Assembly: GCA_900755035.1 (NCBI GenBank)
Contig: CAAEEZ010000016.1
Span: forward strand, 172,873 to 236,872
DNA length: 64,000 nucleotides
Direction: 5' to 3'
From: Clostridia bacterium
GTDB lineage: Bacteria; Bacillota; Clostridia; Christensenellales; CAAEEZ01
Below, one piece after another: positions 17,911 through 51,421 of the stretch; the first letter of the stretch is position 1, and each line of letters begins with the position of its first letter. The notes below the pieces were generated by a model, which saw only the letters and a program-made list of their open reading frames with translations, had not been told where the DNA came from and did not search any database. The position numbers and the translations under genes are program-made.

Positions 17911-17939
17911 TTTACAAGTATAATAAATGGTGCTATAAT
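17911..17939 (+). promoter_or_regulatory. sigma-A promoter with extended -10
   Basis: TTTACA, 17-nt spacer, TGcTATAAT. Confidence 0.6.
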
Positions 17940-17944
17940 AAATT

Positions 17945-18050
17945 TACAATTTGGGTAGGGGAAGAGCGGTGCAAGTCCGTCGCAACTATTATTGCCGTAT
18001 AGTCGGAATGCCTACGAGTACTGAATACGAGGACGAAATTATGCTATTAG
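17945..18050 (+). promoter_or_regulatory. Cobalamin (B12) riboswitch aptamer
   Basis: GGGAAgagcGGTGcAAgTCCgtcGCAACTat…GCCgtatAGTCgGAAtGCCtac reproduces the conserved cobalamin core and a B12-box-like AGTCGGAATGCC. Confidence 0.8.
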
Positions 18051-18051
18051 A

Positions 18052-18084
18052 AAATTGCGTTCTTGTGTAATGCAATTTTTTTAT
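18052..18084 (+). terminator. Riboswitch expression-platform terminator
   Basis: aaattgcgt/atgcaattt stem (one G-U) followed by a T-run. Confidence 0.65.
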
Positions 18085-18098
18085 TTTACGGGGAAATA

Positions 18099-18338
18099 AT
18101 GACGAAAGATGAGGCAATAACTTTACTTACTGAAAAATATGCAACACTTGGCAGACTGCCTAAGAAAAGCGATTTTACTGCTACGGAGATAAGCAGAATA
18201 AAAGCGAAGTTAGGGCCGTGGACAAGGGCGCTAGAACAAGCGAACTTAAAAGAAAAATCACCCTTGCACGAAGCGAAAGTCCAAAGAATAAAGCAAAAAA
18301 GAATACTAAATAAAGAGGTAAAAAATGAAGAGAACTAG
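18099..18338 (+). CDS. Small protein with a single homing-endonuclease-associated (HNH-repeat-like) motif
   Basis: 79 aa from the ATG at 18099; …LGRLPKKSDF…LGPWTRALEQANL resembles that repeat as I recall it; the track start at 18063 lies inside the terminator. Confidence 0.5.
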   Translation: MTKDEAITLLTEKYATLGRLPKKSDFTATEISRIKAKLGPWTRALEQANLKEKSPLHEAKVQRIKQKRILNKEVKNEEN

Positions 18339-19995
18339 CAAAATAATAACTGTAATATTAGTGGTTGCATTGTCTATAACGATGGTGTTTGGACTAACGG
18401 CTTGCGCAAACGATTCTACTAGTATTGTTACAAGACCTTCTGCAAATTTTAATTTTTTGGCGTGCAGTAGCGACAAAGTAGACAAAGTAACCATATATAC
18501 CGACGACTTTAATGACACGGCTAGCGTGTACGACGTGCTAAAAAAGGCTGAGTTGAAGTACGGGTTTGGCGCAGAGTTTGGCGAGTATGATATGCTAACT
18601 GCTGTAAAAAAGAGAGGTTTGATACCTAATACTTTGCAATACATTTGTATATATACCGACCAAAAGCCAAGCGATATGACATACGTAACTACTAGAAAGG
18701 TGGACGGCATTACCTATTATTCTGCTAGCGTTGGAATAAAAGACCTTAGATTAAAGCCTAGCGTAAACTATTTGTTTGCAATAGAGCAAAACGAATTTTT
18801 CGATAAGGGAATAGAAATAAGCCAAACGTTGCCTGGCATTGAAGAAGAAAAGTATTTAAGCGAGCCTGTTATAGACGGCGAATTCGTTTACGTAACGCTT
18901 GGCGATACGATTATGAAGTTAAGGGTAAACGGCGACAAGTTCGACGTAGTAAAAGAAGCGCAAATGAAAGGCTCTACCTACCACGGAATGAGTGCTCCTA
19001 TTATTGCTGGCGACAAAATAGTTACGGGCGTAAAAGGTGGTTTGCAAGCATTTGATAAGGACTTAAATTCGTTATGGTACTATAAAAACGAAAAGGGTGG
19101 CGACGTAACTTCTCCTATTACCTACGATATAGTAAACAAAGACGAATACGTTTACGTGGGGTTTGGAAACAACGAAGGTGCAAACGATTTTGTTTGTATT
19201 AACGTAAAAGATGAAAATCCGTCTTCTGTTGACGAATTAAAAAACGCCGAATGGAAATACGAAAAACAAGGTGGATATTATTATAACGGCGTAGTAATCG
19301 TAAAAGATTACGTTATTTTGCCGGGTACTCTTAACGGTGGAAACGCCATAGTATCGCTAAATAAAACTAGTGGCGAGTATATGGACGGAAAGGTAGTTGA
19401 CGGCGTAATAAAAAGTTCTATCGTTTATGAATACGAGCTTAACAGCGTTTTCTTTACTACCGAAAAAGGTACGTTGTATAGGATATATTTTAGCAAGGAA
19501 GAAGAAAGCGAAGGTAAATTTGGAGCAAACGTAAATTCCGTGCGCACGGCTAAGTTAAAGTACGAGTATACTACTTGTACGCCTGCTATTTACAAAAATA
19601 GATTGTACGTATCGTCAGGAAAACAATTTGACAACACTACGGGCGCAGCTATGCAAGTATTTAACGTGGATACTATGACGGAAATCTACGGCGTAGAAAC
19701 CGACGATCCAACTGTGTCTAAGCCGGTTGTAAGAATTACCGATAACGACGGCGTAGAAGAAATTTTTGTGTTCTTTACAAAAAATAGCGAACCGGGAGGA
19801 ATATATTATATCGTTGATACTTCGGTATCTAAGCAAGGGCATTATCACACCTTGTACGAGCCAGAGGGAAGTCAGCAAGACTATTGTATGAGTAATATTA
19901 TCTTTGATAAAAACGGAAAAATATATTACAAAAACGATAGCAATACGTTGTTCATGTATCATCTTGGAATAAATTGGATAGATAATAAATTCTAA
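18325..19995 (+). CDS. Surface lipoprotein: DUF4430-like N-domain plus PQQ-like beta-propeller
   Basis: Signal peptide with lipobox LTAC (Cys27); repeated …G-L-AFD…LW-Y… blade-like segments; first large gene of the B12-riboswitch operon. Confidence 0.6.
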   Translation: MKRTSKIITVILVVALSITMVFGLTACANDSTSIVTRPSANFNFLACSSDKVDKVTIYTDDFNDTASVYDVLKKAELKYGFGAEFGEYDMLTAVKKRGLIPNTLQYICIYTDQKPSDMTYVTTRKVDGITYYSASVGIKDLRLKPSVNYLFAIEQNEFFDKGIEISQTLPGIEEEKYLSEPVIDGEFVYVTLGDTIMKLRVNGDKFDVVKEAQMKGSTYHGMSAPIIAGDKIVTGVKGGLQAFDKDLNSLWYYKNEKGGDVTSPITYDIVNKDEYVYVGFGNNEGANDFVCINVKDENPSSVDELKNAEWKYEKQGGYYYNGVVIVKDYVILPGTLNGGNAIVSLNKTSGEYMDGKVVDGVIKSSIVYEYELNSVFFTTEKGTLYRIYFSKEEESEGKFGANVNSVRTAKLKYEYTTCTPAIYKNRLYVSSGKQFDNTTGAAMQVFNVDTMTEIYGVETDDPTVSKPVVRITDNDGVEEIFVFFTKNSEPGGIYYIVDTSVSKQGHYHTLYEPEGSQQDYCMSNIIFDKNGKIYYKNDSNTLFMYHLGINWIDNKF

Positions 19996-20525
19996 TGTTA
20001 AAAAAACGCGCAAAAGACTTAATAGTTATACTAATTATAGCAATCGTACTTACGGTTGCTATTCTTGCGTTAGACATTAAAAGCGTTGACGAATACTATA
20101 ACGAGCCGTTAGATAAAATTACCGATACGAGCAAAGTGGCGTATCTGTCTATCGATTGCAAGACGGTACTATCTAATATGGATAAACTAAAAGAGGAAGT
20201 AAAAGATTTTATCCCAAGTAACGGAGTGATTTTAGAAAAAAAGCCTTATGCCATAAAAAGTGGCGATACGGCGTTTACAATTTTGCAAAGGATAGCAAAG
20301 CATAATAAAATATCGCTATCGTATAGTGGAAATAATCAATTTAATTCTATTTACGTTGAAGGCATAAATCACTTGTTTGAAAAAGATTGTGGCGGAGAGT
20401 CCGGTTGGATAGTTCTAGTAAACGGAAAAATGCTGAAAATGGCAAGCGACAAGTACGTGCTTAAAGAGGGCGACTACGTAGAGTGGCGCTATTCGTGTGT
20501 GCTTGGCGACGTGGGGGTAGTATGA
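19995..20525 (+). CDS. DUF4430-domain protein (transcobalamin-like fold family), membrane anchored
   Basis: N-terminal TM; …GDTAFTILQRI…SGWIVLVNGKM…LKEGDYVEWRY matches the DUF4430 pattern. Confidence 0.7.
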   Translation: MLKKRAKDLIVILIIAIVLTVAILALDIKSVDEYYNEPLDKITDTSKVAYLSIDCKTVLSNMDKLKEEVKDFIPSNGVILEKKPYAIKSGDTAFTILQRIAKHNKISLSYSGNNQFNSIYVEGINHLFEKDCGGESGWIVLVNGKMLKMASDKYVLKEGDYVEWRYSCVLGDVGVV

Positions 20526-21403
20526 GAAAATTATATAATTATCATCCACTTTCAACGTTCGTGTATTTTTTCTGTACGATATGCTTAACTATGTTCACGT
20601 TTAATCCTATCATAATAGGAATATCATTGCTAGGTGCAATTTGCCTGAGTTTTGCATATTTCCCTGCAAAAACCGTATTAAAACGGTTGGTAACGGGGCT
20701 TTTAATTATCGCTATCCTAACGCTTATAAATCCGCTTATCGTACATAGGGGCGTAACGGAATTGTTATTTATCAACGGAAAACCTATCACATTAGAAGCG
20801 TTGTTATACGGGTTAAATGCGTCCGTAATGCTAGTAAGTATAGTTTGTTGGTTTGCCGTGTATAACGAAGCAATGAGTAGCGATAAATTTATATACTTGT
20901 TCAAAAAAACGATGCCGAAAATAGCGCTTATGATATCCTCTATTTTGGCTTTTATTCCAAAACTGAAAAGGCAATATCAAGATATCGAGGCAGGTCAAAT
21001 TGCGCTTGGCTACGAAAATGGCAACGGGTTTGTAGATAAAATAAAGAGCGGAATAAGAAGAACGCAAATTTTATTTACGTCAGCTATTGAAAACAGCGTG
21101 GAAACGGGGCAATCTATGGAGGCAAGGGGATACGGACAAAAAGGGAAAAGTGGCTTTGGCTTTTTTAGGTTTAAGCTGGGCGACGGAACGTTTTTAGCGT
21201 GGACGATAATAGTATTTACGGCAATAATCACTTTGCTCGGTTTAGGTATAGGGCGGTTTAGTTTTTACCCTACGCTTACGACTTTAACGGCAAGCGCAAA
21301 GGATATTGCGTTATACGTACTTTGCTTTTTAGGGCTATTTACGGGCATAACTATGGAAATTAAGGAGGAAATATTATGGCAGACGTACTTATCAAAAATT
21401 TAA
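20522..21403 (+). CDS. ecfT: ECF transporter T component (CbiQ/EcfT family)
   Basis: Polytopic protein with …EAMSSDKF… and …SAIENSVETGQSMEARGY (the conserved ARG-type coupling helix region); start at the ATG at 20522 overlaps the upstream stop. Confidence 0.75.
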   Translation: MRKLYNYHPLSTFVYFFCTICLTMFTFNPIIIGISLLGAICLSFAYFPAKTVLKRLVTGLLIIAILTLINPLIVHRGVTELLFINGKPITLEALLYGLNASVMLVSIVCWFAVYNEAMSSDKFIYLFKKTMPKIALMISSILAFIPKLKRQYQDIEAGQIALGYENGNGFVDKIKSGIRRTQILFTSAIENSVETGQSMEARGYGQKGKSGFGFFRFKLGDGTFLAWTIIVFTAIITLLGLGIGRFSFYPTLTTLTASAKDIALYVLCFLGLFTGITMEIKEEILWQTYLSKI

Positions 21404-23007
21404 GTTTTACCTATGCAGGCGAAGATAAGCACGCCTTAAAAAATATTGATATTGCCATTAAATCGGGCGAATTTATAGCCTTGGCAGGTATTAGTGGTTC
21501 GGGCAAAACTACGCTACTAAAACTACTAAAACCACAAATTGCCCCAAACGGAACGATAAACGGCGAAATACTGATAGGTGGCGTGCCTATTGAAAAAGTG
21601 AACACGGCTGTGGACGTAGGTTTCGTTATGCAAAATCCTGAAAATCAAATAGTTACGGATAAGGTATATAGAGAACTTGCGTTCGGGCTAGAAAATATTG
21701 GCGAAAAAACCGAAAAAATAAAAGTAAAGATTGCCGAAATTGCCGAATATTTTGGTATCAGCAGTTGGATAGAGGAAAAAACGTCGAATCTTAGTGGAGG
21801 ACAAAGACAACTGTTGAATTTGTCCGCCGTTATGGTAACCGACCCTAAAATACTTATTTTTGACGAAGCAACTAGCCAACTAGATCCCATCGTTGCTAGC
21901 GAGTTTTTGCGTGTGGTAAAAAGAATTAACGAAGAGTTTGGCGTAACGGTAATTATGGCGGAGCATAGGCTAAACGAACTTATCGGAATTGCCGATAGGC
22001 TAATCGTATTAGACGACGGAAAGAAGATAATAGACGCCGTGCCAAAAACTCTAAGCCCTAGCGAAATGAGTGGCGAATTTGTACAATCTATGCCGTTTAC
22101 GTTTAGGCTAGCCAAAAAACTAAATCTTGAAAAATGCCCGCTTACAGAGAAAGAAGCAAGAGAGTGCTTAAAAGAGATAGTAACTATGCCCGTAACCTAC
22201 CTGCCAAACAAGAAAGAGGAACGGGAAAAAGAGATTGCGCTAAGCGTGAAGAGTGCGTATTTTAGATACGACAAAAAGGGTAGCGACGTAATTAAGGATT
22301 TAAGGTTAGAGGTTAAAAAAGGGGAAGTTTACGCTTTGGTAGGTGGTAACGGCTCGGGCAAAACCACCTTGTTAAATTGTATCGTAGGTATTAAAGATTT
22401 TTATCACGGTAAAATAAAATACTTTGGTAGTAGTAAAAAGGAGTTTTTGTCAAAAAGGGCAGGCAATATCGCTATGCTTACCCAAAACCCCAAAACGCTG
22501 TTTATAAAAGATACCGTTAAAAAAGACCTAGAAGAGGTTGCAAAAATAGTAGGGAAAAGCAAAGACGAATTTGCGAATTTACTAGAAAAAACGATAGAAA
22601 CACTAGGTATTAAGCCACTTTTAGAAAAGCACCCTTACGATTTGTCGGGTGGCGAAACCGAAAAGGTTGCGCTAGCGAAAGTGCTACTAACTAGCCCGAA
22701 AATATTGCTGTTAGACGAGCCTACCAAGGGGCTTGACGGCTACTACAAATCTAAAATCGCTAGCATTATCAACGATTTGAAAGACGAAGACGTTACCGTT
22801 ATATTAGTAACTCACGACCAAGAGTTTGCCGCAATGGTGGCTGATAGAATAGGTATGCTGTTTAACGGCGAGATAGTAGGGGAAGATACGCCTAGAAACT
22901 TTTTTATAAATAGCAAATATTACACTACGTCTGCCGTAAAGGTGGCTAGGGGAATAGTGAATAACGCAGTTAGCGAAAATGAAATAGCAGAGGCAATAAA
23001 TGGATAA
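21376..23007 (+). CDS. ECF transporter fused tandem ATPase (EcfA-EcfA')
   Basis: 543 aa with two ABC cassettes: GISGSGKTT…LSGGQRQ…IFDEATS and GGNGSGKTT…LSGGETE…LLDEPT. Confidence 0.9.
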   Translation: MADVLIKNLSFTYAGEDKHALKNIDIAIKSGEFIALAGISGSGKTTLLKLLKPQIAPNGTINGEILIGGVPIEKVNTAVDVGFVMQNPENQIVTDKVYRELAFGLENIGEKTEKIKVKIAEIAEYFGISSWIEEKTSNLSGGQRQLLNLSAVMVTDPKILIFDEATSQLDPIVASEFLRVVKRINEEFGVTVIMAEHRLNELIGIADRLIVLDDGKKIIDAVPKTLSPSEMSGEFVQSMPFTFRLAKKLNLEKCPLTEKEARECLKEIVTMPVTYLPNKKEEREKEIALSVKSAYFRYDKKGSDVIKDLRLEVKKGEVYALVGGNGSGKTTLLNCIVGIKDFYHGKIKYFGSSKKEFLSKRAGNIAMLTQNPKTLFIKDTVKKDLEEVAKIVGKSKDEFANLLEKTIETLGIKPLLEKHPYDLSGGETEKVALAKVLLTSPKILLLDEPTKGLDGYYKSKIASIINDLKDEDVTVILVTHDQEFAAMVADRIGMLFNGEIVGEDTPRNFFINSKYYTTSAVKVARGIVNNAVSENEIAEAING

Positions 23008-23770
23008 AAAATTGCTAATAAGACGAATAATAAACGTTTTGGTGTACCTATTACTTATACCACTTACGCTTGTTCTTGGCGTAACGGTATTTAAGGATAG
23101 ACAGTACGTCGTAGTGTCGGTGGTGATTGCGTTTTTAGTTTTATTAGGTTTCTTTTTTAGTTACGACAGGAAAAAAACAACTTCAAAAGAGATAGCAATC
23201 GTAACCGTCATGGTGGCGTTCTCCGTTGTAGGCAGGCTTATTTTTGCCGCAGTGCCGTCCTTTAAGCCAATCAGCGCAATAGTGATTATTAGCGGTATAG
23301 CGCTTGGCTACGAAGCGGGCTTTATGGTGGGGGCGTTGTCGGCTTTTATCAGTAATTTTTATTTTGGGCAAGGTGCTTGGACTCCCTTTCAAATGGTCAG
23401 TTTTGGGCTAATTGGTTTGCTTTCTGGGTTATTATTTAGAAAAAACCGCAATATATGGCTTATTCTAATATACGGGGCGATAAGTGGCGTATTGTTTAGT
23501 TTAATTATGGACGTATGGACTGTAATTTCGGTTGATAACGCCTTTGTGCTCGAAAGATATTTTTCGGCGCTTACGGTGGGTTTACCGTATATGGCAATAT
23601 ATATAGTAAGCAACGTAGCTTTTTTGTCGTTACTTGCAAAACCTATGCTAAAACAACTCGACAGAATAAAAAAGAAGTACGGTATATTTGACGGTAGTAA
23701 GAATTATATAACCACAAATAACGCCACGAATAAAGACGTTAAATTAGAAGATAATAACGCAGAAAATTAG
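23000..23770 (+). CDS. ECF transporter S (substrate-capture) component, predicted cobalamin-specific by context
   Basis: 256 aa, about six TM segments, last gene of the riboswitch-controlled ECF cluster. Confidence 0.6.
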   Translation: MDKKLLIRRIINVLVYLLLIPLTLVLGVTVFKDRQYVVVSVVIAFLVLLGFFFSYDRKKTTSKEIAIVTVMVAFSVVGRLIFAAVPSFKPISAIVIISGIALGYEAGFMVGALSAFISNFYFGQGAWTPFQMVSFGLIGLLSGLLFRKNRNIWLILIYGAISGVLFSLIMDVWTVISVDNAFVLERYFSALTVGLPYMAIYIVSNVAFLSLLAKPMLKQLDRIKKKYGIFDGSKNYITTNNATNKDVKLEDNNAEN

Positions 23771-35897: not shown

Positions 35898-36060
35898 TTT
35901 ATAGCGTTTAAGGTTGCGTATATTGACAATATCGTTGCATGCCTACCTATAATATGATATAATTATGATCATCTAATATTCTATATAAAATCGGTGAGGT
36001 TGTAAAAGGCCTTAAATGTAGAAATTCTATTTGTACATTAAACTCAAAGGAGCACGAATT

Positions 36061-37977
36061 GTGGAAAGACTAAATGATATACTTGTAAATCTATTAAAAA
36101 CGGATAGCCGTTATTTTACGGACGAAGGCGAACTTCTTAAAAATGCCGTTTATGAAGACGCTATGAAAATGGAAACTTCGCTTATAAAATTATTGCTTTC
36201 AGATGATACCTGCAAAGCACGTTTCTTTACGGAAGTTGACGGCGTTTTAGTATTTGATAAAGTCGGCTTTGGCTGGGTAATCAATAATCGTCAGTTTTTA
36301 CCGGATTCATTCACACGCTATAAGAATAAAATTGGACTTGTCGATAATAACGGCGAGTTTCTTTCGTCATCGGATAATGTTGTTTTAGCATTTCCGTACA
36401 AAGATTGCGTTTTAGAGTTTGACAGTACGGATGAAAATGAGAAGCGTACTGAAATTTTTTATAACGAAACATTATGCCACGACGATATAGATCATTTATT
36501 CAATAGAAAAGTATTTTCCAACGCACAACGACACACGAAAACAGGTATAGAAAACATAACAACCTTTAATGATGAGAATCTTGTAATTAAGGGTAATAAT
36601 TTACTTTCTTTATATTCTTTGCTCGATAAATACGCTGGAAAAATAAAGTGTATGTATTGGGATATACTTTATAACACGGAAAACGACCAAGTTCCCTACA
36701 ATGATAGTTTTAAGCACTCATCTTGGCTGACTATGATGAAAAATCGTTTAGAAGTAGCTAAAAAACTATTGCGCACCGACGGTGTTATTTGTTTGCAATG
36801 CGATGATAACGAAATGGCTTATTTGAAAGTCTTATGTGATGAACTTTTCGGTAGGGAAGCATTTATCAATTGTATTTGTATTAAATCTTCCGAAGCGAGT
36901 GGCACAAAAATGGCACACGTTGAAAAAAAATTTCCTAAAATAAAAGATTATTTGCTTGTGTATAAGTCAAATCCTTCTGCTTTAATCCATATTAAACCTA
37001 TTAAAGTTGACAATACTGAAAATATATATGATTTTATTGAATATGCAAAATATTATACTAAAATTATTACAAATCCAAACGCTCCTGTAAATCAGTGGAA
37101 TATTGTTTCCATAAAAGATTATATAAAAAACGAGAAATTGAGCATAAATGTCAATAACGATATTGAATTAACAAAATTCAAATTGGATAATGCAGATAGA
37201 ATAGTGTATAGAACAAATAATAAGTCTTTTAGTAAATATCATTTTAATACAGCAACTGAAGAAATTATTTCGCCAAACGGTATTCGCTATATTTGGTGGG
37301 AAGGAAAGCAAATGCTGTTTTTGTCAGAATATACAAGTACATATCTGTGTGATATTTGGAGTGATATTAGTACAATAAATCTAAACAAAGAAGGAAATGT
37401 CCAACTTCCAAATGGTAAAAAACCCGAATCGTTATTAAGACGTATCATATATGCATTTACCAATGAAAATGATTACGTTTTAGATGCATACTTTGGTACA
37501 GGAACAACGGGTGCAGTTGCATTAAAAATGAATAGAAAGTTTATTGGTTTAGAGCAACTTAATTCTCATTACGAAAAATGCAAACACCGTTTAACAGAAG
37601 TCATAAACGGCGATACTTCGGGAATCTCAAGCGAAGTAAATTGGCAAGGTGGTGGCTCGTTTGTTTCGGTTGAATTAAAAACGCTTAATCAAGTTTTTGT
37701 GGAAGCAATACAATCGGCAGCAAACGATGAGCAACTTGCAAGCGTTTGGGCTAAAATGCGTGAAAGTGGTTTTATTAGCAGTTACGTAAATCCGAAAGAT
37801 ATAAATACCGAAGCTGAAGATTTTAACACCCTTTCTTTTGACGATAAAAAAAGACTGTTCCTTGCTATTTTGGATAAAAATATGCTTTACGTAAACTATT
37901 GTGATATCGACGACGAAACCTACGATATATCAGAAGCAGATAAGGCATTCACAAACAGTTTCTATAAGGAGTCGTAA
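36061..37977 (+). CDS. mod: Type III R-M methyltransferase (Mod), beta-class, atypical motif IV
   Basis: Motif I LDAYFGTGTTG near the C-terminus; the motif IV position reads WDILYNT instead of IDPPYNT; GTG start at 36061 lies 8 nt after aaggag. Confidence 0.75.
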   Translation: MERLNDILVNLLKTDSRYFTDEGELLKNAVYEDAMKMETSLIKLLLSDDTCKARFFTEVDGVLVFDKVGFGWVINNRQFLPDSFTRYKNKIGLVDNNGEFLSSSDNVVLAFPYKDCVLEFDSTDENEKRTEIFYNETLCHDDIDHLFNRKVFSNAQRHTKTGIENITTFNDENLVIKGNNLLSLYSLLDKYAGKIKCMYWDILYNTENDQVPYNDSFKHSSWLTMMKNRLEVAKKLLRTDGVICLQCDDNEMAYLKVLCDELFGREAFINCICIKSSEASGTKMAHVEKKFPKIKDYLLVYKSNPSALIHIKPIKVDNTENIYDFIEYAKYYTKIITNPNAPVNQWNIVSIKDYIKNEKLSINVNNDIELTKFKLDNADRIVYRTNNKSFSKYHFNTATEEIISPNGIRYIWWEGKQMLFLSEYTSTYLCDIWSDISTINLNKEGNVQLPNGKKPESLLRRIIYAFTNENDYVLDAYFGTGTTGAVALKMNRKFIGLEQLNSHYEKCKHRLTEVINGDTSGISSEVNWQGGGSFVSVELKTLNQVFVEAIQSAANDEQLASVWAKMRESGFISSYVNPKDINTEAEDFNTLSFDDKKRLFLAILDKNMLYVNYCDIDDETYDISEADKAFTNSFYKES

Positions 37978-37979
37978 TT

Positions 37980-40565
37980 ATGCCGTTCCTTTTTGAAAAA
38001 ATTGACACATTAAAGGAAGTTGGCATTTATAGCGAACTTCCAACGTATATAAAAGAAAATCTAAATCCTGCATTTGAGTTGCGCCCTTATCAAGAATCGG
38101 CGTTTTGTAATTATATTACATACTTTGAAAATCCGAAAATACGACAAAAACCAACGCAAACGTTATTTCATATGGCAACGGGTAGTGGTAAAACGCTTAT
38201 TATGGCAGGGCTTATGCTTTATCTTTACAAACAAGGCTATCGTAATTTCCTTTTCTTTGTAAATTTAAGTAATATTGTACGCAAAACGAAAGAAAATTTC
38301 CTTGTGCAAACGTCGTCTAAATATCTTTTTGCTGAAAATTTAATTATCGACGGCGAACGCATTAAGATTAAAGAAGTTAGCAATTTTCAAAATACCGATG
38401 AAAATGCTATAAATATTTGCTTTACTACCATTCAAGGTTTACACTCGGATATGTGGGCTGTTAAAGAAAATAGTATTTCCTTTGACGATTTTAAGGATAA
38501 AAAAGTCGTTCTTATATCTGATGAAGCCCACCATTTAAGCGCAAGTACGAAAAAGCAAGAAAAAGAAGAACAAGAAAATAATAAGCATTGGGAATATACT
38601 GTTGGTCGTATTTTTGGTGCTAACACTGACAACGTTCTTTTAGAGTTTACCGCTACTTGCGACGTTAAAAATGTTGATATTTTAGCAAAGTATAAAAATA
38701 AGATTATTTTTGATTATCCGTTAGCGAGGTTTAGAGAAGATTTATATTCCAAAGAAATTAAAACGTTGCGTACGGATAGCCCCGTTTTTGAGAGGTCTTT
38801 ACAAGCCGTTTTATTAAGTCAATATCGCTTGAAAGAATTTCAAGATAACCGCCTTAACATAAAGCCCATTATTCTTTTTAAGTCGCATTTAATTAAAGAA
38901 AATGCGGATAATATGGCAAATTTTATAAAGAATATTTCTACACTTACGGGCGCAAAAATACAAGAAGTTTTTGATATGATACGTGGACAAGCACCCGTTA
39001 TGCAAGAAGCCTACGAATATTTTATAAATAATGGTATTTCTTTTGAACAATTAGCGCAAGAGATTAAAGACGATTTTTCGGCTTCGCATTGTATTTCAGC
39101 TAATGACGATAAAGAAGTCGAAAAAAATCAATTGCTTTTGAACTCTCTTGAAGATAAAAACAATCCGTATCGTGCCGTATTTGCTGTTGATAAATTAAAT
39201 GAAGGTTGGGATGTTCTTAACCTTTTCGATATTGTTCGTCTATACGAAACCCGTGATGGTAAAAACGGCAAGCCGGGCGCAGGTACGATTTCAGAAGCAC
39301 AACTTATAGGGCGTGGTGCAAGATATTGTCCTTTTAAGATTGATGATGAGCAACCTAAATATCAACGCAAATATGATAACGACGTTGATAATCAACTTCG
39401 TATTTGTGAAACGCTTTATTATCATTGTTGGAATGAGCCGAGATATATAAGTGAATTACATACTGCTTTACGCGAAGTTGGACTTGATCTTGATGGTATC
39501 GTTACTAAAAGATATAAATTAAAGGACTCATTCAAAGCTGACGATTTATATCGTACAGGCTACGTATTTACGAATGAAAGAGTATTAAAAAGCCGTAACG
39601 ACGTACACGAACTTTTGCCGTCCGTAAGAGATAAAATATATGAAGTGGTGATAGCCGTTGGTAAAGGTGGCGAAGACATTGTTTTAGAAGAAGTTTCTAC
39701 CGATATAAGTGTAAAAACTTATCAATATCTTACAACGTTTAAGGAAATTGCTTCTATAAATTATTCTACCGTAAACCGAGCATTAAGACAGTTTGACGTG
39801 TTTAAATTTAACACCTTAAAATCATACTTCCCGAACGTAAAATCTACTTATGATTTTGTAACCGATAGCAATTATTTAGGCGACATTAAAATAAAAATTA
39901 CGTCGAAGCACCAAATACCACAGATGAGCATTATTTATAAGGCTTGCGTAAACGTTCTTTCTAAAATTGCTTCAAAGGTGTCTGCTATTGAAGAAGTTTG
40001 GGAAGGTACGACAGAATTTAAGGCGCACTATATAAGCGAATTTATTAAAGATAAGAGTGTAAACTATACGCCGATTGCAGGCGGTAAAGGAACGTCGCAA
40101 AACGATGCTTCCGTTGGTGCAAATCGTTTAGATTTGTCAGTTGAAGATTGGTTTGTATTTAACGATAACTACGGAACGTCCGAAGAAAAAGCCTTTGTGC
40201 GTTATTTCAAGGATTATGTTGATACCTTGCGAAGTAAGTACGATAAAATATATTTGCTTCGTAATGAACGTCAAATACACCTATATTCGTTTGAAGGTGG
40301 TGAACGCTTTGAGCCTGACTATATCTTATATTTATGCAAAAATCGCACCGATTCGGTTGAACAACTTATTGTTTTCGTTGAGCCGAAAGGTACACACTTA
40401 ATTGATTCGGATAAATGGAAAGAAGATTTCTTACTAGAACTTAAAGGCAAGTCAATTCCTACAATTACGTTTGCCGATGATAATAAATATAAAATATGGG
40501 GTTTTCACTTTTTTAATACAGAACGTAGAAGCATTGAATTTACTGCGGATATGGAAACATTATAA
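37980..40565 (+). CDS. res: Type III restriction enzyme Res subunit (SF2 helicase plus PD-(D/E)xK nuclease)
   Basis: Walker A MATGSGKT, DEAH box SDEAHH, C-terminal EPDY…VEPKG nuclease motif. Confidence 0.85.
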   Translation: MPFLFEKIDTLKEVGIYSELPTYIKENLNPAFELRPYQESAFCNYITYFENPKIRQKPTQTLFHMATGSGKTLIMAGLMLYLYKQGYRNFLFFVNLSNIVRKTKENFLVQTSSKYLFAENLIIDGERIKIKEVSNFQNTDENAINICFTTIQGLHSDMWAVKENSISFDDFKDKKVVLISDEAHHLSASTKKQEKEEQENNKHWEYTVGRIFGANTDNVLLEFTATCDVKNVDILAKYKNKIIFDYPLARFREDLYSKEIKTLRTDSPVFERSLQAVLLSQYRLKEFQDNRLNIKPIILFKSHLIKENADNMANFIKNISTLTGAKIQEVFDMIRGQAPVMQEAYEYFINNGISFEQLAQEIKDDFSASHCISANDDKEVEKNQLLLNSLEDKNNPYRAVFAVDKLNEGWDVLNLFDIVRLYETRDGKNGKPGAGTISEAQLIGRGARYCPFKIDDEQPKYQRKYDNDVDNQLRICETLYYHCWNEPRYISELHTALREVGLDLDGIVTKRYKLKDSFKADDLYRTGYVFTNERVLKSRNDVHELLPSVRDKIYEVVIAVGKGGEDIVLEEVSTDISVKTYQYLTTFKEIASINYSTVNRALRQFDVFKFNTLKSYFPNVKSTYDFVTDSNYLGDIKIKITSKHQIPQMSIIYKACVNVLSKIASKVSAIEEVWEGTTEFKAHYISEFIKDKSVNYTPIAGGKGTSQNDASVGANRLDLSVEDWFVFNDNYGTSEEKAFVRYFKDYVDTLRSKYDKIYLLRNERQIHLYSFEGGERFEPDYILYLCKNRTDSVEQLIVFVEPKGTHLIDSDKWKEDFLLELKGKSIPTITFADDNKYKIWGFHFFNTERRSIEFTADMETL

Positions 40566-40569
40566 AGTA

Positions 40570-40595
40570 AAAAGGCGAGAATTTTTCGCCTTTTA
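40570..40595 (+). terminator. Rho-independent terminator after res
   Basis: aaggcga/tcgcctt stem plus T-run. Confidence 0.7.
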
Positions 40596-40642
40596 TCATT
40601 GAAATTTTGACTATTTTAACTTAACGATTAAATCTAAATAAT

Positions 40643-42160
40643 CTATTGTAAAAAAACAAAACGCACTCCTAAATATTTGGAAGTGCGTTTTATCTTTGGT
40701 GCCCCAAGGCATTTCAAATCCGAACCAGACGGGGTGCAGTTGAGTTCCGAAAGGAATACTGTTTTTGTTCCGTCCTTGTAGTTGAAGGTAAAGGTTATCT
40801 TATCATCGTAAAGGTATATTGCATTGATAAATCCATCGATTAGCCTTTGTTTACCTTCTTTTGTTGAAATATTCAACTTTTTAAATTTCTCTATTCCAAA
40901 GCGTATTTGCTCTTTCGTAAGAAAGGGTTTTTTAATTTGTTCTTGAACGATAGTTAAATCAAGTTGGTTCTTTTCTTTTTCAAGTTCCGCAAGTCTATCT
41001 TTCGTTGAGTCGAAGATAATCCCTTGCTCAATCGCTGTAATTATGTTTTTAATACGATTTTCAACGTCTTCTAATTGTAAACGCAATCTCGGTAAGCGCG
41101 GATTTTCTTCGCCCTGTAAATCGAAAATCCTATCCACAAGATAATCAATCACGGCTTCGTCGTGAAGAAGCTCCATTGCCTTTTGAACGGCTAAATCTTC
41201 AATCCACAACTTACGTACCGTTTTCTTATCGCAAGTATGCTTTTTAGCGTTTACGCATTTGTAATAGCGGTGGACTTCCTTTTTTCTTCCCGTTCCTGCT
41301 TCACCAACCATAAGCGCGCCACATTTACCGCAGAACAATTTTGTAGTTAAAAGATAATCATCTTCCGCTTTATGACGGGCGGGTGCGTGTTTATTTTGCG
41401 CCATACGACGTTGAACACGCTCAAATAAGTCTTTGCTAACGATAGCAGGCACGGCATCGGGAATTACAATGTCATTATATCTAAATTCGCCTATATACTT
41501 GCGGTTGGTAAGCATATATTGAACGATATTATAAGACATTTTCTTGCCAAGTCTTGTCGTTATTCCTTTTGCATTGAAATGGTTTACAATATCTTTGATA
41601 AGGTAGCCGTCGGCATACATTGTAAAGGCTTCCACAACGATAGGAGCAAGTGTTTGGGCAATAGCGTGTTTTTGTTCTTCGTCTATGTAGTAACCAAAAG
41701 GAATTTGTCCGCCGTTTACTTTCGCTTTTAATGCATTTTCTTTGAGCCCACGCTTAACCTTAACGGAAAGTTCAGCCGAGTAGTATTCCGCCATACCTTC
41801 AAGCATTGATTCAAGAATAATTCCTTCAGGACCTTCGCTAATGTTTTCCTTTGCCGAAACTACTTTAACGCCGTTCTTTTTAAGGATATGTTTGTAATTG
41901 GCAGAATCGTATCTATCACGAGAAAAACGGTCTAATTTCCAAACGATAATCATATTAAAGCAGTGCTTATAACTATCTTTAATCATACGTTGAAAATCGG
42001 GACGATTATCCGAAGTAGCCGTCATCGCACGGTCTATATAGTTTGCAACGACGTCCACACCGATTTTATTCGCAAATTCCAAACACTCACGAAGTTGACC
42101 TTCAATAGATTCTTCACGTTGACTATCCGAAGAATATCGCGCATATATAACTGCTTTCAT
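40643..42160 (-). CDS. Large serine recombinase
   Basis: 505 aa; N-terminal resolvase domain AVIYARYSSDSQ (catalytic Ser), recombinase domain, Cys-rich zinc-ribbon (CGKCG…YYKC…C). The last codons run through a hairpin/T-run at 40650-40691. Confidence 0.9.
   Translation of the reverse strand: MKAVIYARYSSDSQREESIEGQLRECLEFANKIGVDVVANYIDRAMTATSDNRPDFQRMIKDSYKHCFNMIIVWKLDRFSRDRYDSANYKHILKKNGVKVVSAKENISEGPEGIILESMLEGMAEYYSAELSVKVKRGLKENALKAKVNGGQIPFGYYIDEEQKHAIAQTLAPIVVEAFTMYADGYLIKDIVNHFNAKGITTRLGKKMSYNIVQYMLTNRKYIGEFRYNDIVIPDAVPAIVSKDLFERVQRRMAQNKHAPARHKAEDDYLLTTKLFCGKCGALMVGEAGTGRKKEVHRYYKCVNAKKHTCDKKTVRKLWIEDLAVQKAMELLHDEAVIDYLVDRIFDLQGEENPRLPRLRLQLEDVENRIKNIITAIEQGIIFDSTKDRLAELEKEKNQLDLTIVQEQIKKPFLTKEQIRFGIEKFKKLNISTKEGKQRLIDGFINAIYLYDDKITFTFNYKDGTKTVFLSELNCTPSGSDLKCLGAPKIKRTSKYLGVRFVFLQ
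40716..40727. repeat. Direct repeat copy L (aaatccgaacca)
   Basis: Exact 12-mer also present at 55108-55119, where it is the left arm of the hairpin downstream of tRNA-Leu. Confidence 0.5.
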
Positions 42161-43254
42161 TCAGTTTTCTCCTTTATTTTATATTTTACACTTAAATAAT
42201 TAGTAAAATTTTTATGCTCATTTAAGTTGTATTCGGCTTGTAATCGTTCATATACATTTCCTTTCATTATGTCATCAAAGGATATGCCCGCCATAGTTGT
42301 TTTTCCTGTAATCTCTTTTACTTTTTTATCTTTTTTAAGCACTTGTTTCAAAGTTTCAGAACAATAAAAATCTTCTGAATACAAGAAAATCAAATAGTTG
42401 ATTACAGATAATTTATCTTCGCGAGATAAGGCTTTGAACCCTTTATAAAACTTTCTATACCTTTTCTCATTATTGTCAATAAAAAGCATTATCGCCGTTT
42501 TATTTTTCAATGGAAAAACACAAATATATAAGTCTTTCATATGATAATTAGGGTCTTTATTATAAATGTCATTTACGATATTTCCGTCAAAATCAACATA
42601 TAAAGCAATTTGCCCTTGAAAAGCAATTGGAACGGTATAATCAAGTAAATCATAGTAAATTAAATAATATCCGTCATTGTAATTGCTTTTGATTTGTTTT
42701 TTTGCTTTGTTAAAATCCATTAAAAAATCTTTCAAATCAAGCGAATTGACTTCATTCATTTGCGTAAAGCGCGGAGCATCTTTAATTGCTTGCATCAATT
42801 TATATTGTTCTATTTCTACCTTTCGTTTATATATATATTTCAAATTGGATTTTAATGCAATAGCCGCTAAAATACTATGTGAAGGTGTAGCATTGTACAC
42901 GTCAGGATTTTCATATTCTTGAAAGATAGTATTATCACAATCTTTACAAATAATATGAAACGTCCCTGCATTGCCAACACCGCTATCTTCTTTCAGATAA
43001 AACGGAAACTCTATAATGCTATTTACCGTTAAGACCATTCCATCGCTATCTATGTTATGTAAACAAAAAGCGGGGATATTATGAGAGTTGCAAAATGATG
43101 TTACGGATTTTCCACAATACAGACAAGTAGTTCCTTTTGCATTATCACGGGCTTGTTTTATAAGCCTTGACATCTGTTTGTTTACTTCAATAGCATTACC
43201 ATTAAAATTTTTTGATATCCATTCGCTTGTTTTAGCTAAATTGTGTAATTCCAT
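42157..43254 (-). CDS. DUF4238-like protein with N-terminal CxxC…CxxC element
   Basis: 365 aa; CLYCGK…SHNIPAFCLHNI resembles the DUF4238 HY(V/I)PxFYLxNF signature; second pair CKDC; 4-nt overlap (ATGA) with the recombinase gene. Confidence 0.45.
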   Translation of the reverse strand: MELHNLAKTSEWISKNFNGNAIEVNKQMSRLIKQARDNAKGTTCLYCGKSVTSFCNSHNIPAFCLHNIDSDGMVLTVNSIIEFPFYLKEDSGVGNAGTFHIICKDCDNTIFQEYENPDVYNATPSHSILAAIALKSNLKYIYKRKVEIEQYKLMQAIKDAPRFTQMNEVNSLDLKDFLMDFNKAKKQIKSNYNDGYYLIYYDLLDYTVPIAFQGQIALYVDFDGNIVNDIYNKDPNYHMKDLYICVFPLKNKTAIMLFIDNNEKRYRKFYKGFKALSREDKLSVINYLIFLYSEDFYCSETLKQVLKKDKKVKEITGKTTMAGISFDDIMKGNVYERLQAEYNLNEHKNFTNYLSVKYKIKEKTE

Positions 43255-43270
43255 ATTATTTATCTCAAAT

Positions 43271-44020
43271 CTATATTGTTAAACTATACTTGTTGTATAA
43301 TTCGATGAATTGGTCTAAAAATTTACATACCAAATCTCTATCTAAAGCAGTTGATAAAGTTTCCTCGTTTCCTTCAGCATTTTTACTCCAATTATATGAG
43401 CCGTGCATTACATAATCAAAATCTATAATACAAAATTTGTTATGCATCCTATTTTTTCCCCACATTGGAACAGTGATAGTGTCAAATTTCTCTTCTAATT
43501 CAGGCAATCTCCATTTGTTAGATTCTTCGTCTGATGTTATAATTCGCACATTAACACCTGCATCTTTTTTTAATTCAAGTTCACGGATAATATCTTTATC
43601 AGTTATCCACGCAACTGCCGCCCAAATTATATATTTAGCACCTCTTATACCTTGAATAATTGTGTCTTTAATTTCATTAAAATCTACATCATATTCTTTA
43701 TAATCCCAATTTTCGGTTTCTATTGGCTTAGGCTTAATTTGTAATTCGCCAAAGGCATATTGCTCGCTTTCAATATATATGTCTTCAGCTAATCCGTTTA
43801 ATTGATTTTTATATTCTTTTGCATTCTTCAACATAGGGATGGGTACGCGCAAAGCAATATTTTCCCAAAATTGATAACTTTTTTTCGTGAAGTATGATGT
43901 TTTTTCAAAAGTGATAATAGAATTACGAAGGATAGTTAAAATTTCATCTTTATTAGGAAAATCCTCATATTTTACATACTCAATCATAGTTTTCAAGAAT
44001 TGCTTTTCATTGACTATCAT
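43271..44020 (-). CDS. PLD-superfamily (single HKD, Nuc-like) putative nuclease
   Basis: 249 aa; HNKFCIIDFDYVMHGSYNWSKNA matches H-x-K-x4-D-x6-GS-x-N; unassigned N-terminal domain of about 110 aa. Confidence 0.75.
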   Translation of the reverse strand: MIVNEKQFLKTMIEYVKYEDFPNKDEILTILRNSIITFEKTSYFTKKSYQFWENIALRVPIPMLKNAKEYKNQLNGLAEDIYIESEQYAFGELQIKPKPIETENWDYKEYDVDFNEIKDTIIQGIRGAKYIIWAAVAWITDKDIIRELELKKDAGVNVRIITSDEESNKWRLPELEEKFDTITVPMWGKNRMHNKFCIIDFDYVMHGSYNWSKNAEGNEETLSTALDRDLVCKFLDQFIELYNKYSLTI

Positions 44021-44376
44021 TACTTTTGTTCCTCCAACATTTTCTTTAAGGTTTCTTTGAGTTTTGCGTGTGCGTTAGTGCTTGGGTCAAAACACATCTC
44101 GATAAAGTCTTGCATACGGTCAGAATTTTCTAATTTAGGTTGTCCGTAAAGTTTACCTTCGGGGTTGTCCGTTCTACCGAGAAGATAATCCGCCGATACG
44201 TCAAAGTAATCGGCAATCTTAACAAGTACGGGGTAGGACGGCATAATAGAGCCAAGCTCGTAACGAGCGAGAACGGGTTGTTTTACGTCGCCAAGTGCCG
44301 TAGCAAGTTTTGCTTGTGATAACTTTGCTTTTTCTCTTAATGACTTTATTCTATATCCAATAATGTTTTCTTGCAT
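44020..44376 (-). CDS. XRE-family HTH transcriptional regulator
   Basis: 118 aa; …IKSLREKAKLSQAKLATALG…YELG… HTH_3 pattern; its stop codon overlaps the PLD gene start by 1 nt. Confidence 0.8.
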   Translation of the reverse strand: MQENIIGYRIKSLREKAKLSQAKLATALGDVKQPVLARYELGSIMPSYPVLVKIADYFDVSADYLLGRTDNPEGKLYGQPKLENSDRMQDFIEMCFDPSTNAHAKLKETLKKMLEEQK

Positions 44377-44403
44377 ATATACCTCTTGTTATTTTGTTCT
44401 TTA

Positions 44404-45414
44404 CTAACAGTATTTTCGTAAATCTTCTTCTTTTGCACCATAAACTTGTTTTGTTGACGCATTAAATAGTTTTTCATTGTAAGCATCAATAATAGCCGCA
44501 TCTCTAATTATAGTGGTCGTGTTTTCTTTTATGGAATTCTTACAGATAATTGAAAGTTGGGGGGTTATCGGATAAAATAATTCAAAATTATTTATAGTTT
44601 CTCCAATATTATTATAATCAGCGTAAAGATTAATTAATGGAAAATCGCTCGTTATGAAATTTTGCGTTGTTTCATTTTTTATTAAATCTATATAAAAATT
44701 ATTTTTACAAAAGGCAGAAGCTAATATTTGAGTATTAACAACCATCATTAAAGGAAACATTGCTAAAGTGGTATTTTTTAAGCACGAATCTTCAAATTTT
44801 TCAACAGTTTGCTTTATCGAATTCAAAATATTATCCTTACTTCTCCATGTTCTAAGCATTTGAGCTGCAATAAACTCAAAAAAATCATATCTTAAATCTT
44901 CGCCATTATATGTAGAAAGTGTTAAGTTATATAACGCTTTAATTTCCATATCAGAAAAAAGGCATTCATTTGAAAATAGATTATTAAGCATATTAAATTT
45001 TAAAAAATCTGAAAATTGTTCCAATACTGTTGGTCCTTCAAATGGAAATTCTCCTTTATATAATTTATTTAAAAATTTAATGCCATTATTTTCTATAGGA
45101 CATACAAAATTATTTTCGATAAAATCTTTTTGAAATATATCTGAAGCATCTGTTATTTTACTTTTGACTCCAATCAGTTTTTGATTATTCAGCCACTTAT
45201 CAAAATATTGAGTTACTGCCTTTTTATCGCTCTCGTTTATCATGCTAATATCATAACTATATTTTTGGACACCAACATTTTCAAGTGATACATTTTTTAT
45301 AATTTTATTTTCAGCTTTGTAATAACAAACAATATTTCCATTGCTAGAATCTAAATTATCTGTCCAAGGCGATAAATACTTTCTCCAAACTAAGTGTTGT
45401 CGTATTGTTGACAT
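44404..45414 (-). CDS. DUF4238-family protein
   Basis: 336 aa; N-terminal QHLVWRKYLSPW and later FITSDFPL resemble the DUF4238 signature blocks. Confidence 0.5.
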   Translation of the reverse strand: MSTIRQHLVWRKYLSPWTDNLDSSNGNIVCYYKAENKIIKNVSLENVGVQKYSYDISMINESDKKAVTQYFDKWLNNQKLIGVKSKITDASDIFQKDFIENNFVCPIENNGIKFLNKLYKGEFPFEGPTVLEQFSDFLKFNMLNNLFSNECLFSDMEIKALYNLTLSTYNGEDLRYDFFEFIAAQMLRTWRSKDNILNSIKQTVEKFEDSCLKNTTLAMFPLMMVVNTQILASAFCKNNFYIDLIKNETTQNFITSDFPLINLYADYNNIGETINNFELFYPITPQLSIICKNSIKENTTTIIRDAAIIDAYNEKLFNASTKQVYGAKEEDLRKYC

Positions 45415-45458
45415 TTCGCACCTCCATATTTTTTAGATGTTAATTACCATCTTACATT

Positions 45459-45487
45459 ATTATAACCGAAAAGTTTTTAAATGTCAA
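45459..45487 (-). promoter_or_regulatory. Consensus sigma-A promoter for the DUF4238-XRE-PLD operon
   Basis: Minus strand reads TTGACA, 17-nt spacer, TATAAT, about 40 nt upstream of the ATG at 45414. Confidence 0.7.
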
Positions 45488-45519
45488 TACGATATAGGTA
45501 TATTTATAAAAAATAGATA

Positions 45520-45551
45520 TTAAAAACGGCAGATACTTTAATCTACCGTTT
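45520..45551 (-). terminator. Rho-independent terminator ending the Hsp70-like operon
   Basis: Minus strand aacggtaga/tctgccgtt stem (one G-U) followed by TTTTT, 10 nt after the stop. Confidence 0.65.
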
Positions 45552-45560
45552 CAATAAGAT

Positions 45561-51201: not shown

Positions 51202-51242
51202 TTGTTGTAATCTCCTGAAATTTTTCCTTTTGTTTTTACATT

Positions 51243-51254
51243 GAATTATCTAAT
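51243..51254. repeat. Inverted repeat, left arm (gaattatctaat)
   Basis: Perfect reverse complement of 51422-51433. Confidence 0.6.
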
Positions 51255-51267
51255 ACGTGTACTATAG

Positions 51268-51293
51268 AAAGATCTTTTACATCTATAGATGTA
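51268..51293. promoter_or_regulatory. Adjacent perfect palindromes (operator-like)
   Basis: AAAGATCTTT (51268-51277) is immediately followed by TACATCTATAGATGTA (51278-51293). Confidence 0.4.
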
Positions 51294-51319
51294 TCTAATG
51301 TACGCCTATATGTTTTCGA

Positions 51320-51348: not shown

Positions 51349-51421
51349 ATTATCAGTATTTTTCAAGAAAAAAAGGATTTTGACAATTTTTATCGTATAT
51401 TAAATATAGAGAAGTTCATAG

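Follow-up and report, generated by a model that had tools for sequence, protein, structure and literature searches.

Introduction

How do Gram-positive bacteria capture cobamides at their surface, and which proteins could take part? Competition for cobamides shapes gut communities, and only for Bacteroidota has surface capture been worked out in detail; of Gram-positive Firmicutes, a 2026 review writes that their extracellular capture "remains entirely uncharacterized" (PMC13616437). The stretch of DNA analyzed here (64,000 nt of contig CAAEEZ010000016.1 from a Clostridia bacterium, called the window below, with coordinates counted from its first letter) brings this question down to one gene, at 18325-19995 on the plus strand. 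Judged from its open reading frame (ORF), its homologues, AlphaFold and Foldseek results and a family profile, this gene encodes a 556-aa lipoprotein with a transcobalamin-beta-like domain and an eight-bladed beta-propeller, and it lies in a cobalamin-riboswitch-controlled operon with an energy-coupling factor (ECF) importer. The window protein very probably belongs to a cobamide uptake system as one of its extracytoplasmic accessory parts, which makes it a good candidate for the step in which Gram-positive bacteria capture B12 at their surface.

Operon structure and riboswitch

The lipoprotein gene is one of six genes whose stop and start codons overlap or abut throughout, with one promoter and one riboswitch ahead; all features of this operon are on the plus strand. 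A sigma-70-type promoter-like site at 17911-17939 (TTTACA, 17 nt, TATAAT, with a TG extension; 11 of 12 consensus positions) is by consensus match the best one between 17700 and 24100, and it ends 3 nt ahead of the riboswitch. The aptamer, at 17942-18021, matches the AdoCbl-II family of the cobalamin clan (RF01689) with 38.7 bits against a gathering score of 36.5 (E 1.2e-5), and RF01689 is found at the same place in the syntenic relatives L001, L002, L004 and L005 with 44.8-47.4 bits. A preliminary description of this locus, made from the DNA letters alone, had placed the lipoprotein gene under a B12 riboswitch, and the Rfam match bears this out. The aptamer is followed at 18025-18090 by a candidate expression platform (terminator), a hairpin and then a U-run: in the minimum free energy fold, an 11+4 bp hairpin occupies 18025-18068 and is followed by TTTTTTTATTTT. 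The terminator scan did not flag this hairpin because its stem is GC-poor and its spacing unusual.

Downstream of the lipoprotein gene, and overlapping its stop codon with its own start, a gene at 19995-20525 encodes a membrane-anchored DUF4430 (transcobalamin-beta-like) protein of 176 aa (PF14478, 4.7e-15, residues 90-167), which, like 4 orthologues, has a hydrophobic anchor at its N-terminus and lacks a lipobox. It is followed by an EcfT-type transmembrane component of the CbiQ family (20522-21403; PF02361, 1.5e-9), a fused EcfA-EcfA' ATPase with two ATP-binding cassette (ABC) domains (21376-23007; ABC_tran twice, TIGR04520 2.7e-104) and a CbrT-like, predicted cobamide-specific ECF S component (23000-23770; PF07155 and PF12822). 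Searched against PDB sequences, the S component matches 6fnp_A best (E 8.6e-9); this chain of 182 aa bears the label "Membrane protein". We take 6FNP to be the Lactobacillus delbrueckii ECF-CbrT structure and this chain to be CbrT. Binding and import of both cobalamin and cobinamide have been demonstrated for CbrT of L. delbrueckii (PMC5997447). With an S component homologous to CbrT on this assumption, a T component, two ABC domains and a cobalamin riboswitch, the module has the parts of a dedicated ECF cobamide importer, in agreement with the ECF importer that had been described downstream of the lipoprotein gene. Cobalt transport was considered and rejected, the S component being CbrT-like and no CbiM or CbiN being present.

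The same gene order and riboswitch were found in four contigs, whose relatives of the window protein are 31-40% identical to it. A fifth contig, L003, carries the same genes; the riboswitch scan covered the other four. Because the syntenic contigs also share flanking genes (PNP, DUF2804 and ROK), we count them as one lineage and not as independent evidence.

The first gene of the operon, which was absent from the preliminary description, is a small cytoplasmic ORF of 79 aa with an HNH_repeat domain (18099-18338; PF18780, Pfam 2.5e-9). It lies between the riboswitch and the lipoprotein gene, overlaps the latter by 14 nt, and is kept at the same position in L001, L002, L003, L004, L005 and L006 plus 13 more distant loci; it gave no match in the PDB or among PHROGs. 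HNH_repeat ORFs found between a cobalamin riboswitch and a propeller gene are 70-100 aa long and have no signal peptide (e.g., L013 9545-9775, L015 6645-6923 and L030 993-1268).

Domain structure of the lipoprotein

The ORF runs from ATG to stop exactly at 18325-19995, with a Shine-Dalgarno-like AGAGG 8-12 nt 5' of the ATG. The N-terminus of the protein, MKRTSKIITVILVVALSITMVFGLTAC, has a positively charged start, a hydrophobic core and a lipobox L-T-A-C; its parts are MKRTSK, IITVILVVALSITMVFG and LTAC, which fits the lipobox pattern [LVI][ASTVI][GAS]C. This motif marks residues 1-27 (18325-18405) as a type II signal peptide with Cys27 as the lipidation site, and an alignment shows Cys27 and Ala26 unchanged in 7 of 7 family members. 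The protein length and the lipobox given in the preliminary description are thus correct. The window lipoprotein itself had no match in NCBIfam and PHROGs scans and none in Pfam, where E values up to 10 were allowed. Similarity over its full length is shown by only six of 5.8 billion protein clusters, and an exhaustive profile search added two further full-length relatives (P0007 and P0008); as so few resemble the whole protein, its full-length architecture, N-terminal domain plus propeller, is rare.

An AlphaFold model of the full-length protein, built on a seven-sequence alignment, has a mean predicted local distance difference test (pLDDT) score of 76.8, with values mostly of 80-92 over residues ~175-548. 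This region (18847-19968) is predicted to be an eight-bladed pyrroloquinoline quinone (PQQ)-like, BamB/YxaL-like beta-propeller made of seven four-stranded blades and a split eighth. The top Foldseek matches of the model in the PDB were the designed protein Cake8, BamB, YxaL (7dxn), tetrathionate hydrolase and quinoprotein dehydrogenases, with target-normalised template modelling (TM) scores of 0.77 for Cake8 and 0.71-0.73 for YxaL, BamB/YxaL lying at about 0.7. Searched against PDB sequences, the family profile matches YxaL (6e-15) and BamB (4e-13), and PF13360 (PQQ_2) is matched by 109 of the 110 family members scanned at E up to 0.01, the window protein itself having no such match. The name "PQQ-like propeller" is therefore applied to the window protein because its relatives pass PF13360, the family profile matches YxaL and BamB, and the AlphaFold model has this fold. 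The multi-blade PQQ-like propeller of the preliminary description is confirmed to this extent, with eight blades in the model.

The N-terminal domain (approximately residues 38-168; 18436-18828) is predicted by AlphaFold, Foldseek and hhalign to be a divergent SLBB/DUF4430-like beta-grasp with the fold of the transcobalamin beta domain. Residues 28-168 modelled alone gave a pLDDT of 85.6 and a predicted TM score of 0.79, and the model has two strands, a helix, a hairpin (E56-58, E64-67) and then more strands. A beta-hairpin that follows the helix is the hallmark of the transcobalamin-like SLBB clade (PMC1796856), and this hairpin is present in the predicted structure. The 17 best Foldseek matches in the PDB were transcobalamin, haptocorrin, the isolated transcobalamin beta domain (5no0 and 5np4) and the R. 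gnavus DUF4430 protein 3u7z, at E 7e-4 to 5e-3 and with target-normalised TM scores of 0.6-0.75 against isolated domains; among them, 5np4 is the isolated transcobalamin beta domain crystallised with cyanocobalamin. A structural comparison with transcobalamin had been proposed in the preliminary description, and transcobalamin beta domains are indeed what the model of the N-terminal domain matches first.

The sequence comparisons gave much less. BLASTP found no similarity between the window protein and the neighbouring DUF4430 protein, a profile of the N-terminal domain against a profile of four orthologues of this neighbour had a probability of 0.08%, and neither Pfam PF14478 nor our local DUF4430 hidden Markov model (HMM) matches the domain. 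PDB sequence searches with the profiles of the N-terminal domain and of the DUF4430 neighbours returned chance-level matches only. With hhalign, the N-terminal domain matched a trimmed 135-sequence DUF4430 profile weakly, with a score of 26.7 (P 3.8e-4) against at most 14.7 for 20 column shuffles and 15.5 for the reversed query (21 controls in all). Scores against the first and second DUF4430 gene types of typical clusters (see below) were both ~23, near the controls, and favor neither type as the source of the N-terminal domain. A much stronger hhalign result against the untrimmed DUF4430 alignment (E 1e-25) was rejected as an artefact, reversed and shuffled queries scoring nearly alike. The likeness of the N-terminal domain to DUF4430 is thus, on the models, one of fold and not of recognisable sequence. 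The resemblance to the neighbouring DUF4430 protein that had been claimed for this segment stands for the fold, through the 17 best PDB matches, and for the weak profile match; it does not stand in BLASTP or in the comparison with the four orthologues.

The propeller family and its gene neighborhoods

For the propeller domain taken by itself, 1819 of 1.84 billion cluster representatives (clusters at 50% identity) are relatives at E<1e-3; public annotation calls them "hypothetical" or "PQQ-binding-like beta-propeller repeat protein". Many of these propellers sit within secreted proteins of 1000-3500 aa. According to the local HMM, a DUF4430-like domain is part of the same polypeptide in 50 of the 153 proteins listed, mostly the best matches of the exhaustive search; Pfam confirmed the fusion in P0028 and P0011, together with SLH, Cadherin-like and Big_2 modules.

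To describe the gene neighborhoods, one genome per species was taken, giving 80 loci that were annotated with local HMMs and Pfam spot checks. They come mostly from gut and rumen Clostridia (Acutalibacteraceae, Oscillospiraceae, Ruminococcaceae, Lachnospiraceae, Christensenellales and Eubacteriaceae), with four records under other names (Bacteroidaceae twice, Coriobacteriales and Hallerella). A DUF4430 domain is encoded in 66 of the 80 loci, and genes for EcfT (52 loci), EcfAA' (51 loci) and a CbrT-like S component (48 loci) are found on the strand of the propeller gene. Of the 46 loci whose flanks extend 4 kb or more to either side, DUF4430 is present in 44, ECF genes in 37 and a riboswitch element in 33. 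The commonest order is riboswitch, sometimes an HNH_repeat ORF, a propeller of ~440 aa, EcfT, EcfAA', S component, DUF4430 and DUF4430 again; the propeller gene usually precedes EcfT immediately, the codons of the two overlapping.

Of the 76 relatives whose N-terminus lies on the contig, 74 have there a hydrophobic stretch resembling a signal peptide. Most relatives have an ordinary signal peptide, the lipobox being essentially confined to the subfamily of the window protein and L046, and in typical clusters the anchors (lipobox or hydrophobic helix) are carried by the DUF4430 proteins. On the models, the window protein is a lipid-anchored variant of the family with a very divergent transcobalamin-like domain of its own.

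The riboswitch linkage was followed across the same loci. Rfam, used at its gathering threshold, placed a cobalamin-clan riboswitch directly upstream in 6 of the first 17 loci. Seven more loci of this first batch had matches in E-value mode: L039 reaches the gathering threshold, and the other six are sub-threshold at the same place and on the same strand (five RF01689 with 27-36 bits and one RF00174 with 23.6 bits). An iterated nhmmer screen then found a cobalamin-clan element in 54 of the 80 loci, all matches being on the strand of the propeller gene; in 51 loci the element lies upstream of this gene, mostly 8-480 nt away. Control batches run with Rfam agreed with nhmmer, 7 of 7 positives being confirmed at 38-112 bits and 7 of 7 negatives as well. 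The linkage is strongest for stand-alone propellers (35 of 38) and weaker for large multidomain proteins (18 of 37). An association of homologues with B12 riboswitches, on which the preliminary description had staked its reading, is thus what we find. Both the classic RF00174 class and the RF01689 (AdoCbl-II) class occur upstream of propeller relatives and, because there are two classes, the association does not reflect a single inherited leader.

Two observations concern the riboswitches themselves. Short cobalamin-clan elements of ~90 nt upstream of stand-alone propeller genes score 27-36 bits against the RF01689 gathering score of 36.5, and their position and strand recur in many loci (L009 1507-1596, L016 4931-5023, L017 3389-3478, L020 4000-4090 and L027 3264-3359); they may be an under-modelled AdoCbl-II riboswitch subclass. 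In L058, another cobalamin riboswitch, RF01482 (4554-4692, minus strand, 54.2 bits), lies ~3.5 kb upstream of the propeller operon and on the opposite strand, where it presumably controls a divergent B12-related gene.

The neighboring genes vary as well. Of the two DUF4430 proteins in typical clusters, the first is a lipoprotein containing a long Ser/Thr/Lys/Glu-rich linker, and the second combines a signal peptide with a hydrophobic helix at the C-terminus; examples of such DUF4430/lipoprotein genes are L013 14326-15039 and 15113-15907, L073 3042-4376 and L053 8727-9845. Some loci have an extra lipoprotein of ~360 aa between the riboswitch and the propeller gene, with no Pfam match and by eye another divergent DUF4430-like protein. 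In Blautia and Ruminococcus loci without a riboswitch, ORFs of ~450 aa with a C-terminal DUF4430 adjoin the giant propeller proteins (L011 5318-6691, L032 5092-6453, L038 7095-8456 and L050 6181-7524); in length and layout these agree with full transcobalamin-like (alpha plus beta) proteins, and they are putatively such. By local HMM, the duplicated ECF ATPase and the S component are apparently fused into one ORF of 880-940 aa in several loci (L057 16587-19289, L058 17549-20374, L062 16640-19342, L067 17622-20267 and L072 13807-16506), and a second EcfT-like gene follows the S component in L028, L046, L048, L049, L052, L071 and L079.

Proposed function and alternatives

Riboswitch regulation, extracytoplasmic location, transcobalamin-like company that is often fused, and a CbrT-type ECF module lead us to place the propeller family in surface cobamide acquisition. 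For the window protein, the reading that we favor, and consider fairly probable, is that of a lipid-anchored accessory subunit that captures corrinoids and hands them to the dedicated ECF cobamide importer; what we infer here is that it binds corrinoids, that these are handed to the S component, and that the parts physically touch. High-affinity corrinoid binding, as suggested in the preliminary description, would have its analogy in Bacteroides, where several surface propeller lipoproteins (BtuG, BtuK1 and BtuGH) bind B12 (PMC13616437). In the proposed mechanism, the riboswitch would permit expression of the six-gene operon when intracellular cobalamin is low, and B12 would switch the lipoprotein and the importer off. 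The lipoprotein would be held at the outer face of the cytoplasmic membrane, next to the membrane-anchored DUF4430 protein; the two would jointly capture corrinoids present in the medium and deliver them to the S component, which would import them with ATP being spent. The most likely corrinoid contact surface would be the N-terminal transcobalamin-beta-like domain, and the propeller could provide a second binding face or a docking platform. A bolder version, which we put forward tentatively and think rather doubtful, is that the propeller and the DUF4430/SLBB domains form an extracytoplasmic corrinoid clamp docking on the S component, a "split transcobalamin" in which the propeller replaces the alpha-toroid. 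The family would then stand for a widespread class of ECF importers with dedicated capture proteins, the Gram-positive counterpart of the Bacteroides BtuG/H/J/K relay.

Several points weigh against a capture role. One third of the loci of relatives are without a cobalamin riboswitch, mostly those of giant multidomain proteins in Blautia, Ruminococcus and Eubacterium, and in the literature searched we found no report of corrinoid binding for the propeller family or for any bacterial DUF4430 protein. The window protein lacks D361, R363, Q260, W281, Y462 and Q464, each more than 90% conserved in stand-alone relatives, and with them the motifs GDxRS and GYPQ; other family-conserved residues are W251, W310, Y428, N487, D498 and Y534-S539. 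The N-terminal domain is so divergent, being missed by the Pfam DUF4430 model, that binding could have been lost, and BtuK2 is a precedent for a non-binding paralogue. The nearest solved relatives of the propeller, BamB and YxaL, are not known small-molecule binders.

This last point leads to the main rival, in which the propeller binds no corrinoid and is a BamB-like platform that holds, assembles or stabilizes DUF4430 proteins at the ECF complex, the DUF4430 domains alone doing the capture. BamB is itself a scaffold lipoprotein; the propeller of most loci is unanchored and the DUF4430 proteins are anchored, so that retention of the propeller would need binding to them; and physical association explains the frequent DUF4430 fusions equally well. 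Such a scaffold, however, leaves unexplained why the propeller specifically is kept in nearly every cluster. BtuG and BtuK1 bind B12 through a propeller face (PMC13616437), and the window protein has its own transcobalamin-like domain, a part that may bind. We judge it unlikely, on balance, that the propeller is a scaffold only. A cell-envelope tether, with the propeller binding peptidoglycan or a surface polysaccharide and only fixing the transcobalamin-like domains to the surface, seems very improbable. Propeller, Ig, FIVAR and fasciclin domains fused to SLBB have been read as surface tethers (PMC1796856), and many relatives also have SLH, Cadherin-like, Big_2 or dockerin modules. A tether is however not needed in a protein that is already lipid-anchored, nor in the giant relatives with separate anchoring modules (SLH, dockerin) of their own, and no other partner of the ECF genes is as constant as the propeller, which is usually next to EcfT.

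A processing enzyme would act outside the cell on corrinoids or their carriers, for example by freeing corrinoids from binding proteins of host or microbial origin, or by taking off or swapping an axial ligand ahead of import. The structural matches do include eight-bladed enzymes (tetrathionate hydrolase and PQQ dehydrogenases), and BtuG is able to take B12 from intrinsic factor (PMC6143338). We nevertheless found no match to an enzyme family at family threshold and identified no conserved catalytic motif, and several family-conserved polar residues are lost in the window protein. To our knowledge, moreover, these Clostridia are not known to make PQQ, and an enzyme appears improbable. The last alternative is a different substrate, haem or a cobamide precursor, with the B12 regulation being indirect. 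A role in haem uptake has been put forward for the related Lactobacillus sakei ECF operon lsa1836-1840, with transcobalamin-like subunits (bioRxiv 10.1101/864751), cobinamide is a further substrate of CbrT (PMC5997447), and the third of the loci without a riboswitch fits here too. Against this, the riboswitch is present at the window locus and in the four syntenic relatives scanned, and stand-alone relatives nearly all have the element. What cobalamin riboswitches control is the synthesis and transport of B12, the transport of cobalt, and isozymes that work without B12, and the S component is CbrT-like and not CbiM-like. Import of another substrate is therefore given little credence here.

If capture and hand-off are confirmed, the family would be a third propeller family among B12 binders, beside BtuG and BtuK. 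The conserved riboswitch-linked module defined here combines the propeller and a dedicated CbrT-type ECF importer with one to three transcobalamin-like proteins, and many Clostridia of gut and rumen have it. The usual picture of ECF transporters is that they do without extracytoplasmic binding proteins; should the accessory proteins turn out to be necessary, the module would be an exception to it.

Other features of the window

Away from the operon, 36031-52000 and 55162-55244 form a probable mobile or defence island, with GC content down to 0.31-0.35, switches of the coding strand and a tRNA nearby. Within it lie a Type III restriction-modification pair (36031-40565) and, on the minus strand, a large serine recombinase (40643-42160) and an Hsp70-like ORF of 984 aa (48247-51201). 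At 58493-62908, a 1471-aa ORF with MBG and Listeria-Bacteroides repeat domains encodes a large surface protein unrelated to the lipoprotein.

Comparison with known systems

The closest solved structures and sequences to the propeller are the eight-bladed PQQ-like BamB and YxaL. BamB is, like the window protein, a lipoprotein, but it serves outer-membrane protein assembly, and YxaL is a secreted Bacillus protein; neither has a B12 context. On the importer side, ECF-CbrT of L. delbrueckii (6FNP) and the predicted CbrTUV share with the window a homologous S component, EcfT and duplicated ATPase, with B12 as substrate, in the window a predicted one. ECF-CbrT uses a shared general ECF module without an extracytoplasmic partner, whereas the window encodes a dedicated module with two or three extracytoplasmic proteins. 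The Lsa1836-1840 system of L. sakei is likewise encoded by an ECF operon, and its substrate is proposed to be scavenged by extracellular transcobalamin-like subunits. These are separate alpha-like and beta-like proteins (bioRxiv 10.1101/864751); unlike the window, the system has an alpha-toroid-like protein and no propeller, and no riboswitch is mentioned for it.

BtuG of Bacteroides offers the nearest functional parallel. It too is a beta-propeller lipoprotein in a cobalamin-riboswitch-controlled B12 transport operon, and extracellular capture with hand-off to a transporter is proposed for both. BtuG, which has a very high affinity for cobalamin and cobinamide, binds B12 on one face of its propeller (PMC13616437) and has been reported only in Bacteroidetes (PMC6143338). 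BtuG (BT1954; PDB 3DSM and 8BMZ) has seven blades, whereas eight PQQ/BamB-like blades are predicted for the window protein; and BtuG is the lid on the outer-membrane, TonB-dependent BtuB, whereas the window protein has an ECF importer as its partner in a single-membrane cell. The window operon has no TonB-dependent receptor, and the loci of the relatives are mostly from Clostridia. No BtuG chain was found among the 61 PDB sequence matches (E up to 10) or the best 50 of 1843 fold matches. With blade number and partner differing and no BtuG among these matches, membership of the window protein in the BtuG family is not supported.

One observation may point the other way. DUF5074 (PF16819) propellers co-locate with BtuB and BtuJ genes or B12 loci in Bacteroidota (PMC13398666), and 29 of the 110 family members scanned, mostly stand-alone ones, cross-match DUF5074 at E up to 0.01 (best 7.7e-9). 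Four of them (P0179, P0224, P0255 and P0266) reach 28.9-34.5 bits, above the gathering score of 27.2. Such cross-matches could reflect either a remote kinship with BtuG or ordinary cross-matching between propellers, and we treat them as a lead only, because the PQQ_2 matches are much stronger and propeller families often cross-match. The convergence with BtuG suggested in the preliminary description fits the data as far as blade number and the matches listed are concerned, and the DUF5074 cross-matches are the part that may speak against it.

Other Bacteroides proteins are instructive. BtuK1 is a propeller lipoprotein of a second family, unrelated to BtuG, that binds B12 (PMC13616437). BtuGH of Bacteroides thetaiotaomicron (BT1490) has, like the window protein, a small domain N-terminal to the propeller in one lipoprotein (PMC13616437), but this B12-binding domain is of the BtuH type and not transcobalamin-like. 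BtuGH and BtuK1 are also seven-bladed outer-membrane proteins, unlike the window protein. The predicted fold of the N-terminal domain, hairpin included, is instead that of the beta domain of transcobalamin, intrinsic factor and haptocorrin and of bacterial DUF4430/SLBB proteins (3u7z). The alpha-toroid that partners this domain in transcobalamin is absent from the window protein, where a propeller follows instead.

Already in 2007, Burroughs et al. (PMC1796856) predicted that B12 is scavenged by extracellular transcobalamin-like proteins whose genes accompany CbiO/CbiQ, and they listed one beta-propeller fusion, the Clostridium protein gi 28210494. Their SLBB systems are of the same operon kind as the window, with the same predicted role in Gram-positive bacteria. 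The propeller was there one of several surface tethers, and a dedicated propeller family and its riboswitch linkage went unrecognised; no description of either was found in the literature that we searched. The idea of Gram-positive transcobalamin-like B12 scavenging is thus older, dating from 2007, and it is the propeller family itself that appears to be new to description.

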